Below, in pieces: positions 1,114 through 1,878 of a stretch of DNA of 64,000 nucleotides (positions are counted from its first letter, which is position 1; each line of letters starts with the position of its first letter). The DNA is taken from sequence record PP554575; one strand, 5' to 3'. Position numbers and translations under genes: made by a program. Source of the DNA: Escherichia phage PMBT16. The notes below the pieces were generated by a model, which was given only the letters and a program-made list of their open reading frames with translations, did not search any database and was not told where the DNA came from.

Positions 1114-1878
1114 TTGAAATTTATCTACAAAGAACACTACCACAAAGGTGTTGTGTGGAGTCTATTTGACGGGTCTGGTGGTGCAGTCATTGACTGGGCA
1201 AAAGCTGGGTACCTGTGCCTGTGCTTTAATGCAGAAGGTGCTGATCACGGCAGTTATGCAGAGGTTATAACCGATCATCCCAACATTCACTATGTGGATT
1301 ATTGGATTGACCCGTGGTTCCCTCAGGAAACTTTTTGCATGTATCCGGCTCCAGACTTTATTCTTGCATTTCCTCCGTGCACGCATTTAGCGGTATCAGG
1401 TGCTGCACATTTTAAGAAAAAGCTGGCTAAGGACCCCATGATCCAAATTAATGCTGTAAAGGATGCTCGGGTTGCGGAAGAGCTGGGAGAGATTTACGAT
1501 TGCCCGTGGCATGTAGAGAATCCTGTGGGTGTTATGTCCACACTGTGGCGCAAACCTGATTACCGTTTTCACCCTTCGGATTATGGCGGGTATTTACCGG
1601 AAGATGATGTAAACCCATGGTTTCCTGAATTTATAGCTCCACGTGATGCCTATCCAAAAATAACTTGCGGCTGGATAGGTAATGGATTTATAATCCCAGC
1701 CACAAAACCTGTCCCGCAAATAGTTGACGTGGTTAGCGGGTATTCCATGCAACACGCCAAGCTGGGTGGAAAGAGTGCAAGAACGAAGATGATTCGAAGC
1801 CTCACACCACGTGGCTGGGCAAAAGCCGTATTCCTGGCAAACGAGCCTGTAGTAAGGAGCAGAATTAATGGGAAGTAA
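1114..1878 (+). CDS. compact DNA (cytosine-5)-methyltransferase-like protein
   Basis: Motif I-like SLFDGSGG, Pro-Cys motif FPPCTH, ENV-like HVENPVG, motif IX-like RSLTPRGWAKA; TTG start with AGGAGA RBS (track start GTG 1084 lies inside the terminator stem). Confidence 0.5.
   Translation: MKFIYKEHYHKGVVWSLFDGSGGAVIDWAKAGYLCLCFNAEGADHGSYAEVITDHPNIHYVDYWIDPWFPQETFCMYPAPDFILAFPPCTHLAVSGAAHFKKKLAKDPMIQINAVKDARVAEELGEIYDCPWHVENPVGVMSTLWRKPDYRFHPSDYGGYLPEDDVNPWFPEFIAPRDAYPKITCGWIGNGFIIPATKPVPQIVDVVSGYSMQHAKLGGKSARTKMIRSLTPRGWAKAVFLANEPVVRSRINGK

Follow-up and report, generated by a model that had tools for sequence, protein, structure and literature searches.

Near one end of the 64,000-nucleotide stretch of Escherichia phage PMBT16 analysed here (record PP554575; hereafter the window) lies a short gene whose product carries motifs of cytosine-C5 methyltransferases (C5-MTases), but which an earlier note had found too short for a standard target-recognition domain. 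Does this gene encode a working DNA methyltransferase, and if so, what does it modify? The window belongs to a Vequintavirus (rV5-like) and shares 98.7% identity with phage nomine. Our analysis argues that the product is very probably an active stand-alone (orphan) AdoMet-dependent DNA cytosine-C5 methyltransferase of a compact, phage-borne 'Dcm-like' family. The gene, family, fold and catalytic residues come from the present analysis and the formation of 5-methylcytosine (5mC) from the literature on a relative with 54% identity, while we infer the target site, timing and benefit.

Gene start and local context

The open reading frame for the methyltransferase runs from 1084 to 1878 on the plus strand (264 aa) and begins with a GTG at 1084 that falls within a terminator-like hairpin. 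The GenBank start codon is the TTG at 1114, which yields 254 aa and follows an AGGAG sequence, and close homologues share the start residue of this TTG version (for example P0002, MDFIYKD). The features of the locus are as follows.

1018..1046, plus strand: sigma-70 promoter, TTGACA-17 nt-TACAAT, 11/12 consensus matches by consensus scan, in the 3'-terminal part of the preceding ORF
1067..1092, plus strand: G+C-rich hairpin of 11 pairs followed by a T-run, from a terminator scan and the sequence
1101..1105, plus strand: Shine-Dalgarno AGGAG, 8 nt 5' of the TTG start, read from the sequence
1114..1878, plus strand: compact Dcm-like DNA cytosine-C5 methyltransferase coding sequence, 254 aa, orthologue of rv5_gp226
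1868..3946, plus strand: DNA primase/helicase gene, its ATG overlapping the final 11 nt of the methyltransferase gene

The RefSeq record of rV5 labels the identical local coordinates 'Sigma70-type promoter; P231', and P231 probably drives the methyltransferase, primase-helicase and polymerase genes. The hairpin sits in the 5' leader of P231 transcripts and, judged by its sequence, looks like the intrinsic terminator of the upstream ORF, which ends at 1062. The gene order is methyltransferase, primase/helicase and then the DNA polymerase gene, and the 11-nt overlap makes it probable that the first two share a transcript and that their translation is coupled.

The gene is already annotated and there is nothing new in its identity. 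Its Vequintavirus orthologues, rv5_gp226 of Escherichia phage rV5 (NC_011041), bas54_0074 of MaxBurger and nomine_72, sit at the corresponding place, flanked by ORF 232 and the primase-helicase gene, behind the same promoter P231, with essentially no differences. Their labels vary between 'DNA methyltransferase', 'Dcm', 'Dcm-like C5 cytosine methyltransferase', 'putative site specific DNA methylase' and 'hypothetical protein'; among 125 matching GenBank records, many read 'DNA methyltransferase' or 'Dcm-like C5 cytosine methyltransferase'.

A widespread family of small proteins

A profile search placed the protein in PHROG 757, 'DNA methyltransferase', over residues 2–251 (E 7.3e-87). At E ≤ 1e-3, a set of 5.8 billion proteins contained 3,552 homologues, with 2,036 cluster representatives at 50% identity, and tblastn found a match in 1,505 phage records. 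The gene itself is carried by 115 phage records at ≥95% amino-acid identity (95–99.6%), and an IMG/VR scan for further loci returned 7, of which 2 were close. The family is very common among phages of enteric bacteria. Compactness is a trait of the whole family and not of the PMBT16 protein alone: the 214 full-length members retrieved have a median length of 233.5 aa, and 200 of them are 270 aa or shorter. For comparison, 327 residues are given for the M.HhaI chain 10mh_A, and E. coli Dcm has 472 aa.

A Pro-Cys-Thr signature is characteristic of these proteins, appearing as FPPCTD 159 times and as FPPCTH 14 times in the 214 full-length members. The PMBT16 protein has all of the family blocks, FPPCT(D/H), ENPV, RDAYxKKT and IRSxTPRG, in conserved columns, and its 254 aa fit the length of roughly 210–260 aa expected of the family. 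When residue conservation was scored over 46 diverse members (32–54% identity), C89, E135 and P137 were invariant and F86, P87, T90, N136, K182, R228 and P232 nearly so. The invariant Cys and Glu, together with the ≥95% identity in 115 phage genomes, point to purifying selection on the active site.

Standard domain models fail to see this family. The earlier note had proposed a profile search against the DNA_methylase family as a check, but such a search would mislead, since PF00145 gives no match to the window protein at E ≤ 10. The sole Pfam line, SCO4226-like at E 0.11, was judged spurious, and NCBIfam gave no match to the window protein. Among 26 relatives, 17 match PF00145 at E ≤ 1, and three (P0054, P0068 and P0070) exceed its gathering score, with 24.7–28.5 bits against a cut-off of 22, over profile positions 4–94 of 324 only. 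When the PDB was searched by sequence, either with the protein alone or with two profiles of the family, only M.HaeIII and DNMT3B gave marginal matches, confined to the N-terminal part (E 0.2–1), the window protein's own match to M.HaeIII reaching only E~1; a KtrA Rossmann match in the same searches was spurious.

Catalytic motifs and predicted fold

The four strings on which the gene had first been singled out, SLFDGSGG, FPPCTH, ENPVG and RSLTPRGWAKA, are all present in the translation. Together with two further conserved or variable segments they are laid out as follows.

1159..1182, plus strand: motif I, SLFDGSGG (residues 16-23), the glycine-rich loop that follows strand beta-1 and binds AdoMet, aligned by hhalign to M.HhaI DLFAGLGG
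1369..1386, plus strand: motif IV, FPPCTH, residues 86-91, catalytic Cys89, aligned by hhalign to M.HhaI FPCQ, with C89 in 46/46 members
1516..1530, plus strand: motif VI, ENPVG, residues 135-139, with Glu135, hhalign pairing VENPVG with M.HhaI MENVKN
1642..1680, plus strand: conserved RDAYPK(I/K)TCGW block, residues 177-189, with D178, Y180, K182, T184 and W187 (nearly) invariant
1681..1779, plus strand: short variable loop, residues 190-222, containing GYSMQHAKLGGKS, the most variable part of the alignment and the part of lowest model confidence (pLDDT 66-77)
1795..1827, plus strand: motif IX-like RSLTPRGWAKA, residues 228-238, at the start of the C-terminal helix, with R228, S229, P232, G234 and A238 nearly invariant

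Profile-profile alignment bears out the motif I, IV and VI calls. A family profile aligned by hhalign with M.HhaI, M.HaeIII and E. coli Dcm matches residues 13–144 to HhaI 13–128, covering all three motifs (E 4.9e-5), and a narrower family profile aligns residues 14–98, motifs I to IV, with 84% probability. Of the two sequences that join E. coli Dcm in this set, stretches of M.HaeIII agree with the PDB search output. These three motifs occur in the same order and register as in the classical enzymes of PF00145, but motif IV has Thr in place of the usual Gln after Pro-Cys, and the phage protein is ~70–220 residues shorter, lacks a large target-recognition domain (TRD) and lies below Pfam detection.

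Nothing C-terminal of motif VI aligns with the canonical enzymes by hhalign, and motif VIII (Q-x-R-x-R) is not recognisable by sequence. By position only, its candidates are R146 and R177-D-A-Y-P-K182, and the conserved RDAYPK(I/K)TCGW block is a candidate functional equivalent. The RSLTPRGWAKA segment, outside the region aligned by hhalign, resembles the canonical RRLTPRECAR consensus by eye. Canonical motif X (GN-x-V) is absent, the protein ending 16 residues beyond the IX-like block; the cofactor pocket must therefore be formed in part by other means than usual.

The AF2 model (pLDDT 88.3, pTM 0.88) places motif I between a strand at 13–17 and a helix at 23–30, and shows the C5-MTase catalytic-domain fold: each of the best 50 Foldseek matches listed is a catalytic domain of DNMT3A, DNMT3B or DNMT3C. 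These are the nearest structural analogues, although DNMT3A and DNMT3B share only 11–15% identity with the phage protein. DNMT3 enzymes have a small TRD with a short recognition loop, and a residue other than Gln after Pro-Cys (PCN). They work, however, as oligomers with regulatory domains and read CpG. Only ~38 residues separate the strand at 184–189 from R228, and the protein is indeed too short for a standard TRD, in keeping with its best structural matches, the DNMT3A and DNMT3B catalytic domains. The loop at residues 190–222 is a candidate minimal target-recognition element.

A relative that makes 5-methylcytosine

The closest experimental evidence comes from phage K42. Its Dcm raises 5mC on the msDNA of retron Ec86, as measured by LC-MS, and triggers the retron; all four escapers of K42 carry mutations that disrupt the dcm gene or lie just upstream of it (bioRxiv 10.1101/2023.08.16.553469). 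As a proxy for K42 Dcm we used the Dcm of KarlJaspers (Bas06), the two phage genomes being 95.4% identical. The 236-aa KarlJaspers protein is 54% identical to the PMBT16 protein over 235 of 254 residues (E 3e-86), and the PMBT16 protein has 18 extra residues at its termini. The K42/KarlJaspers enzyme shares the FPPCT, ENPV and IRSLTPRG blocks, yet the phages are of different types, PMBT16 being a 137-kb myovirus and K42/KarlJaspers a 51-kb siphovirus of the Drexlerviridae. A quadruple mutant of K42 Dcm, C82A/E128A/K175A/K176A, is inactive (bioRxiv 10.1101/2023.08.16.553469). The mutated residues correspond to C89, E135, K182 and I183 of the PMBT16 protein, and most family members have Lys at the fourth position. 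This relative supports the idea of a minimal DNA C5-MTase.

In the mechanism that we propose, the gene's own host-type promoter, and co-transcription with the genes for the primase/helicase and the DNA polymerase, would make the enzyme present during phage DNA replication. The target cytosine would be flipped out of the duplex, Cys89 attacking C6 while Glu135 activates the ring, and AdoMet held by the SLFDGSGG loop would give its methyl group to C5, yielding 5-methylcytosine. Recognition of the sequence would fall to the very short loop at about residues 190–222 and not to a large TRD of the bacterial kind.

Which site is methylated?

The target is likely CCWGG or a related short C-rich site, CCWGG being suggested by analogy. 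The name 'Dcm-like' describes a presumed specificity and not orthology, because the family does not meaningfully resemble E. coli Dcm: aligned with that enzyme by hhalign, the family profile reached a probability of 0.35%, over 27 columns around motif IV only. For K42, the site was taken from E. coli Dcm, and its only test was mutation of the CC in a single msDNA hairpin, where a change of either C of CCTGG abolished defence against the phage (bioRxiv 10.1101/2023.08.16.553469). This result fits CCWGG or a sub-motif of it. The KP15 and KP27 phages, reported to encode a dcm gene that may belong to the compact family, resist EcoRII digestion, which is weak evidence as their hosts also have Dcm (PMC3620542).

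That the protein is an active C5-MTase with a target other than CCWGG, whether a shorter or different motif or hairpin or replicating DNA, is a possibility that we take seriously without favouring it; the rV5 and K42 types may also differ from each other. Besides the absence of any sequence relation to E. coli Dcm beyond motif IV, and a K42 specificity that was assumed and not mapped, it draws on two recurrent variants of the loop. In the stretch flanked by the conserved GNGF and KLGGKS blocks, a GYSxQH-type loop, as in the PMBT16 protein (GYSMQH), occurs in at least 95 of the 214 full-length members, and a DNPGW-type loop, as in K42/KarlJaspers, in 30. It also draws on the observation that dcm+ MG1655 with an empty vector has little 5mC on msDNA (bioRxiv 10.1101/2023.08.16.553469), which would be unexpected of two enzymes, phage and host, with the same specificity.

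The phage genomes point the same way without being decisive. With 118 sites in the window, CCWGG shows only a mild shortage (O/E 0.79); RCCGGY (O/E 0.18) and CAGCTG (O/E 0.39) are more strongly depleted, with no obvious relation to the methyltransferase. We also aligned 10 Vequintavirus relatives to the window (11 genomes) and compared the contexts of C/T variation, stratified by codon position, over 15,425 C-type sites, which included 2,438 with C/T variation. No hot spot appeared at the inner C of CCWGG (24/131 variable, stratified OR 1.17, p 0.59), in a test whose power is limited by the 131 sites and which cannot separate host from phage methylation. An excess at the inner C of CCGG (OR 3.3, p 2e-7) was rejected as a target signal and indicates no alternative site: GCGG showed the same excess, there was no C-to-T polarity (13 vs 12), and many unrelated contexts were 'significant' in an unbiased scan, owing to codon and gene heterogeneity.

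For rV5 and other Vequintavirus phages, we found no cytosine methylome or restriction-digest data in the literature; the paper on the rV5 genome says nothing of methylation, and a nanopore study of Bas51 called 6mA only.

Other activities and other methyltransferases

Could the C5-MTase fold serve another chemistry? The earlier note had raised an enzyme repurposed for another pyrimidine modification, and the one natural alternative compared here is CmoX (PDB 8yf3), a phage DNA cytosine C5-carboxymethyltransferase of 333 aa. Its Arg350 contacts the carboxylate of carboxy-SAM, it has a phage CmoA/CmoY neighbourhood in which it usually lies beside CmoA and an amide ligase, and E. coli makes carboxy-SAM with a CmoA of its own (PMC12783734). 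The missing canonical motif X likewise implies an unusual cofactor pocket. Even so, transfer of a non-methyl group, such as carboxymethyl, or the start of a hypermodification pathway is very improbable here. LC-MS shows 5mC as the product of the K42 enzyme, at 54% identity; the CmoX signature is lacking, with FPPCT and not SPPC in motif IV and nothing after the IX-like block that could hold a counterpart of Arg350; and the annotation tables list no CmoA, ligase, TET or glycosyltransferase in the neighbourhood. In addition, BASEL phenotyping showed Vequintavirinae to be exceptionally sensitive to RM systems, unlike hypermodified phages.

It is just as improbable that the protein is an inactive DNA-binding relic or a Dnmt2-like RNA cytosine methyltransferase, as the silence of the curated Pfam and NCBIfam models and the unrecognisable motifs VIII to X might suggest, given that the catalytic Cys and Glu are invariant in 46 divergent members and that a relative is catalytically active on DNA.

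The window contains two more methyltransferase-like genes.

40239..40772, minus strand: second methyltransferase-like gene, 177 aa, NPPY, amino-methyltransferase type, PHROG 799 (E 5e-67)
55444..56292, minus strand: third methyltransferase-like gene, 282 aa, NPPF, PHROG 5172 (E 4e-129)

Both products are annotated 'putative N6 adenine methyltransferase'; the first has weak Pfam Dam/EcoRI_methylase matches, and the second has weaker matches to DNA-MTase PHROGs, such as PHROG 799 (E 3e-13). The count of three such genes given previously is correct for these open reading frames but too low for the phage, since a fourth methyltransferase (441 aa, N6-adenine) lies immediately upstream of the window according to the BASEL annotation. 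The heavy genome modification for restriction evasion that had been read into this count is not supported: methylating a few motifs is not heavy modification, and in the BASEL assays Vequintavirinae showed no RM protection. The systems used there include EcoKI, EcoRI and EcoRV, and none of these three cuts CCWGG. A narrower benefit would fit the orphan C5-MTase that we favour, in which progeny DNA is shielded from restriction enzymes of one specificity, mainly in hosts without a matching methylase. Its cost may be exposure to retron Ec86/Eco1, which can sense this activity.

Discussion

The PMBT16 gene belongs to a widespread type of accessory methylase in phages and has been annotated correctly, and in itself it matters little. 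Because Pfam and NCBIfam miss the family, automated pipelines often return 'hypothetical protein', and PHROG 757 or structural comparison is needed to recognise it.

More speculatively, the family may be the bacterial-virus counterpart of DNMT3, with no classical TRD or motif X, a loop of ~30 residues, perhaps a dimeric form, and swappable loop variants that set different sites. We consider this reading doubtful; if it were true, the specificity of the rV5 type would be unmapped, and 'Dcm-like' would be in part a misnomer for phage genes that number well over a thousand.

Finally, the family has a documented double-edged role, in that it may shield DNA from restriction of one specificity and also triggers retron Ec86/Eco1. 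This dual role makes its presence relevant when rV5-like phages are selected for therapeutic use against E. coli that carry the retron, B/BL21-type strains among them.

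Identity of the compact methyltransferase

The 254-aa protein is a compact C5-cytosine methyltransferase (C5-MTase), a reading on which sequence, conservation and predicted structure all agree. The four motif strings quoted in the earlier note, SLFDGSGG, FPPCTH, ENPVG and RSLTPRGWAKA, are all present in the translation (residues 16-23, 86-91, 135-139 and 228-238, respectively). In the kind of profile search it had proposed, the protein itself had no useful match in Pfam or NCBIfam; 17 of 26 close relatives matched PF00145 (DNA_methylase) at E ≤ 1. Three relatives passed the gathering score, but over the N-terminal 90 profile positions only. 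When 46 diverse family members were aligned profile to profile with M.HhaI, M.HaeIII and E. coli Dcm, residues 13-144 aligned with M.HhaI 13-128 (E = 4.9e-5), so that SLFDGSGG falls on motif I, PPCT opposite FPCQ and VENPVG opposite MENVKN. A narrower family profile covered residues 14-98, motifs I-IV, at 84% probability.

Among diverse members at only 32-54% identity to the query, C89, G96, E135, P137, P154, Y180, W187 and P195 are invariant, and F86, P87, T90, N136, R146, D178, K182, T184, R228, S229, P232 and G234 are nearly so. AlphaFold2 modelled the protein with high confidence (pLDDT 88.3, pTM 0.88), and the best 50 Foldseek matches listed were DNMT3 catalytic domains (A, B or C) throughout. 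Unlike classical C5-MTases, the phage protein lacks a recognisable motif VIII, the large target-recognition domain and motif X. Just ~38 residues lie between the strand at 184-189 and R228, too few for a standard target-recognition domain, as had been proposed, and the IX-like RSLTPRGWAKA is followed by only 16 residues.

The compactness and Pro-Cys-Thr motif that had been singled out as unusual are both real but not peculiar to PMBT16; they belong to a large, long-annotated family. PHROG 757 ('DNA methyltransferase') covers residues 2-251 (E = 7.3e-87). By tblastn, homologues occur in 1,505 of 50,697 phage records, from phages of several families with mainly Escherichia (576), Klebsiella (521) and Salmonella (107) as hosts; identity is at least 95% in 115 records. 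Metagenome-scale searches returned 3,552 proteins in one case and, among clusters built at 50% identity, 2,036 representatives in another (920 at E ≤ 1e-10). Full-length members (n = 214) carry FPPCT(D/H) and have a median length of 233.5 aa, with 200 of them at or below 270 aa. The gene is the known rv5_gp226 of a well-sampled genus, called 'Dcm-like C5 cytosine methyltransferase' in BASEL records, and its family has an experimentally characterised member.

Evidence for 5mC formation in the family

That member is encoded by the dcm gene (711 bp) of K42, a strain of phage KarlJaspers, and was examined in a preprint on retron Ec86 (bioRxiv 10.1101/2023.08.16.553469). There, all four escaper phages had mutations disrupting, or just upstream of, dcm; its expression was toxic only when the retron was present; and a Dcm of this kind was encoded by 34 of 35 Ec86-sensitive phages. 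By LC-MS, msDNA 5mC was high with wild-type Dcm and not with a C82A/E128A/K175A/K176A mutant. We used the KarlJaspers gene as a stand-in for the K42 protein, since it is also 711 bp and its genome is 95.4% identical to K42. Its product and the window protein share 54% identity across 235 residues (E = 3e-86), and the mutated residues correspond to C89, E135, K182 and I183. Because this K42-type Dcm makes 5mC, there is direct evidence of 5mC formation for the family, which supports the first option of the earlier note, a minimal DNA C5-MTase.

The same result speaks against the other option raised earlier, a C5-MTase fold repurposed for a different pyrimidine modification. CmoX, the single natural alternative chemistry that could be compared, is defined by SPPC, an arginine (R350) in contact with the carboxylate of the cofactor, and CmoA/CmoY in the neighbourhood (PMC12783734). 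None of these was found in the window protein or its annotated neighbourhood, which argues against CmoX-style repurposing.

Target site

The K42 study took CCWGG over from E. coli Dcm as the target, and its only test of this was mutation of the CC in the msDNA hairpin; when dcm+ MG1655 carried an empty vector, there was little 5mC on its msDNA (10.1101/2023.08.16.553469). The compact family and E. coli Dcm were not meaningfully similar. A variable loop ahead of the conserved KLGGKS block takes at least two recurrent forms in the family, GYSMQH in the window protein versus DNPGW in K42/KarlJaspers.

The window has 118 CCWGG sites (O/E 0.79). Alignment of the window with 10 relatives gave 15,425 C-type sites, of which 2,438 are C/T-variable. 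CCWGG showed no C/T hot spot at its inner C (24/131, stratified OR 1.17, p = 0.59), in a test of limited power in which host and phage methylation are inseparable. The inner C of CCGG showed an apparent excess (OR 3.3) that was not read as a target: it is shared with GCGG, lacks C-to-T polarity and accompanies many other context effects in the unbiased scan. In the alignment of the window with L005-L019, C/T polymorphism was raised at C before GG (CCGG 36%, GCGG 34%, versus 16% overall) and at CTAG. RCCGGY (2 sites, O/E 0.18) and CAGCTG (5 sites, O/E 0.39) are strongly depleted in the window. Avoidance of restriction sites or effects of codon context may lie behind these depletions and polymorphism contexts.

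Other methyltransferases and restriction

Further methyltransferase genes, each a putative N6-adenine methyltransferase in BASEL annotation, are:

40239-40772 (-), MTase-like ORF with NPPY, 177 aa
55444-56292 (-), MTase-like ORF with NPPF, 282 aa
immediately upstream of window position 1, 441 aa, bas54_0070 in MaxBurger

The earlier note had counted three methyltransferase-like genes; both additional ORFs are real and methyltransferase-like, but the upstream gene makes a fourth. The related phage Bas51 has an N6-adenine methyltransferase that makes 6mA at GATC and sets off retrons Asa1 and Squ1 (PMC12548924). Heavy genome modification for restriction evasion, as had been suggested, is not borne out, as a few site-specific methylases do not amount to heavy modification. 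BASEL phenotyping describes Vequintavirinae as exceptionally RM-susceptible, seemingly without effective protection, and in Drexlerviridae it saw no simple relation of methyltransferase genes to restriction resistance (PMC8594841).

Genomic context and expression

The first 8 kb of the window matched 125 phage records, 111 of them over at least 80% of the query, the closest being Escherichia phage nomine (98.7% identity). Every match examined is classified as Vequintavirus (rV5-like myoviruses, ~137 kb). Sixteen records titled 'UNVERIFIED: Campylobacter phage', with 'Campylobacter jejuni' given as host, match the window, those listed at 92-97% identity to its first 8 kb. All six opened (MG065647, MG065690, MG065662, MG065661, MG065646 and MG065635; L014-L019) carry the Vequintavirus classification. 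The stated host is almost certainly an error, from co-isolated coliphages or contamination.

The replication module runs from small ORFs through the MTase-like gene and a DNA primase/helicase to a T7-like DNA polymerase, one 925-aa ORF at 4005-6782. In the rV5 RefSeq record (L020, 4013-7059) the polymerase is spread over several CDS (gp224, gp223, gp220 and small ORFs) and the locus is 274 bp longer, which suggests either an insertion or frameshifts from sequencing in the old record. Homing endonucleases near the polymerase differ from genome to genome. In relatives, a homing-endonuclease gene interrupts the class III anaerobic ribonucleotide reductase gene (MaxBurger, L004, 4291-6998; window counterpart ~44,000-48,500); the CDS is joined in MaxBurger and split in nomine and nomo.

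ORF prediction gave a 264-aa frame with a GTG start (1084..1878). The region upstream reads:

1018-1046, P231, near-consensus sigma-70 promoter (TTGACA-17-TACAAT), annotated in the rV5 RefSeq record
1067-1092, G+C-rich hairpin and T-run, containing the GTG
1101-1105, AGGAG, upstream of a TTG at 1114

The product is 254 aa, because the 765-bp CDS in the GenBank annotation of rV5, nomine and MaxBurger (window 1114-1878) and the start residue of close homologues agree. The hairpin begins ~20 nt after P231 and lies ahead of the ribosome-binding site and start codon, so P231 transcripts would carry a terminator-shaped leader; it may act as an attenuator or stabilise the RNA, or it may simply be the terminator of the gene upstream, overlapping with the promoter region. 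The primase/helicase gene starts at an ATG within the MTase gene, 11 nt from its end (overlap 1868-1878), which suggests translational coupling. We infer that the MTase gene and the replication genes are transcribed together by host RNA polymerase, an arrangement that would fit an enzyme whose task is to methylate phage DNA just after its synthesis.
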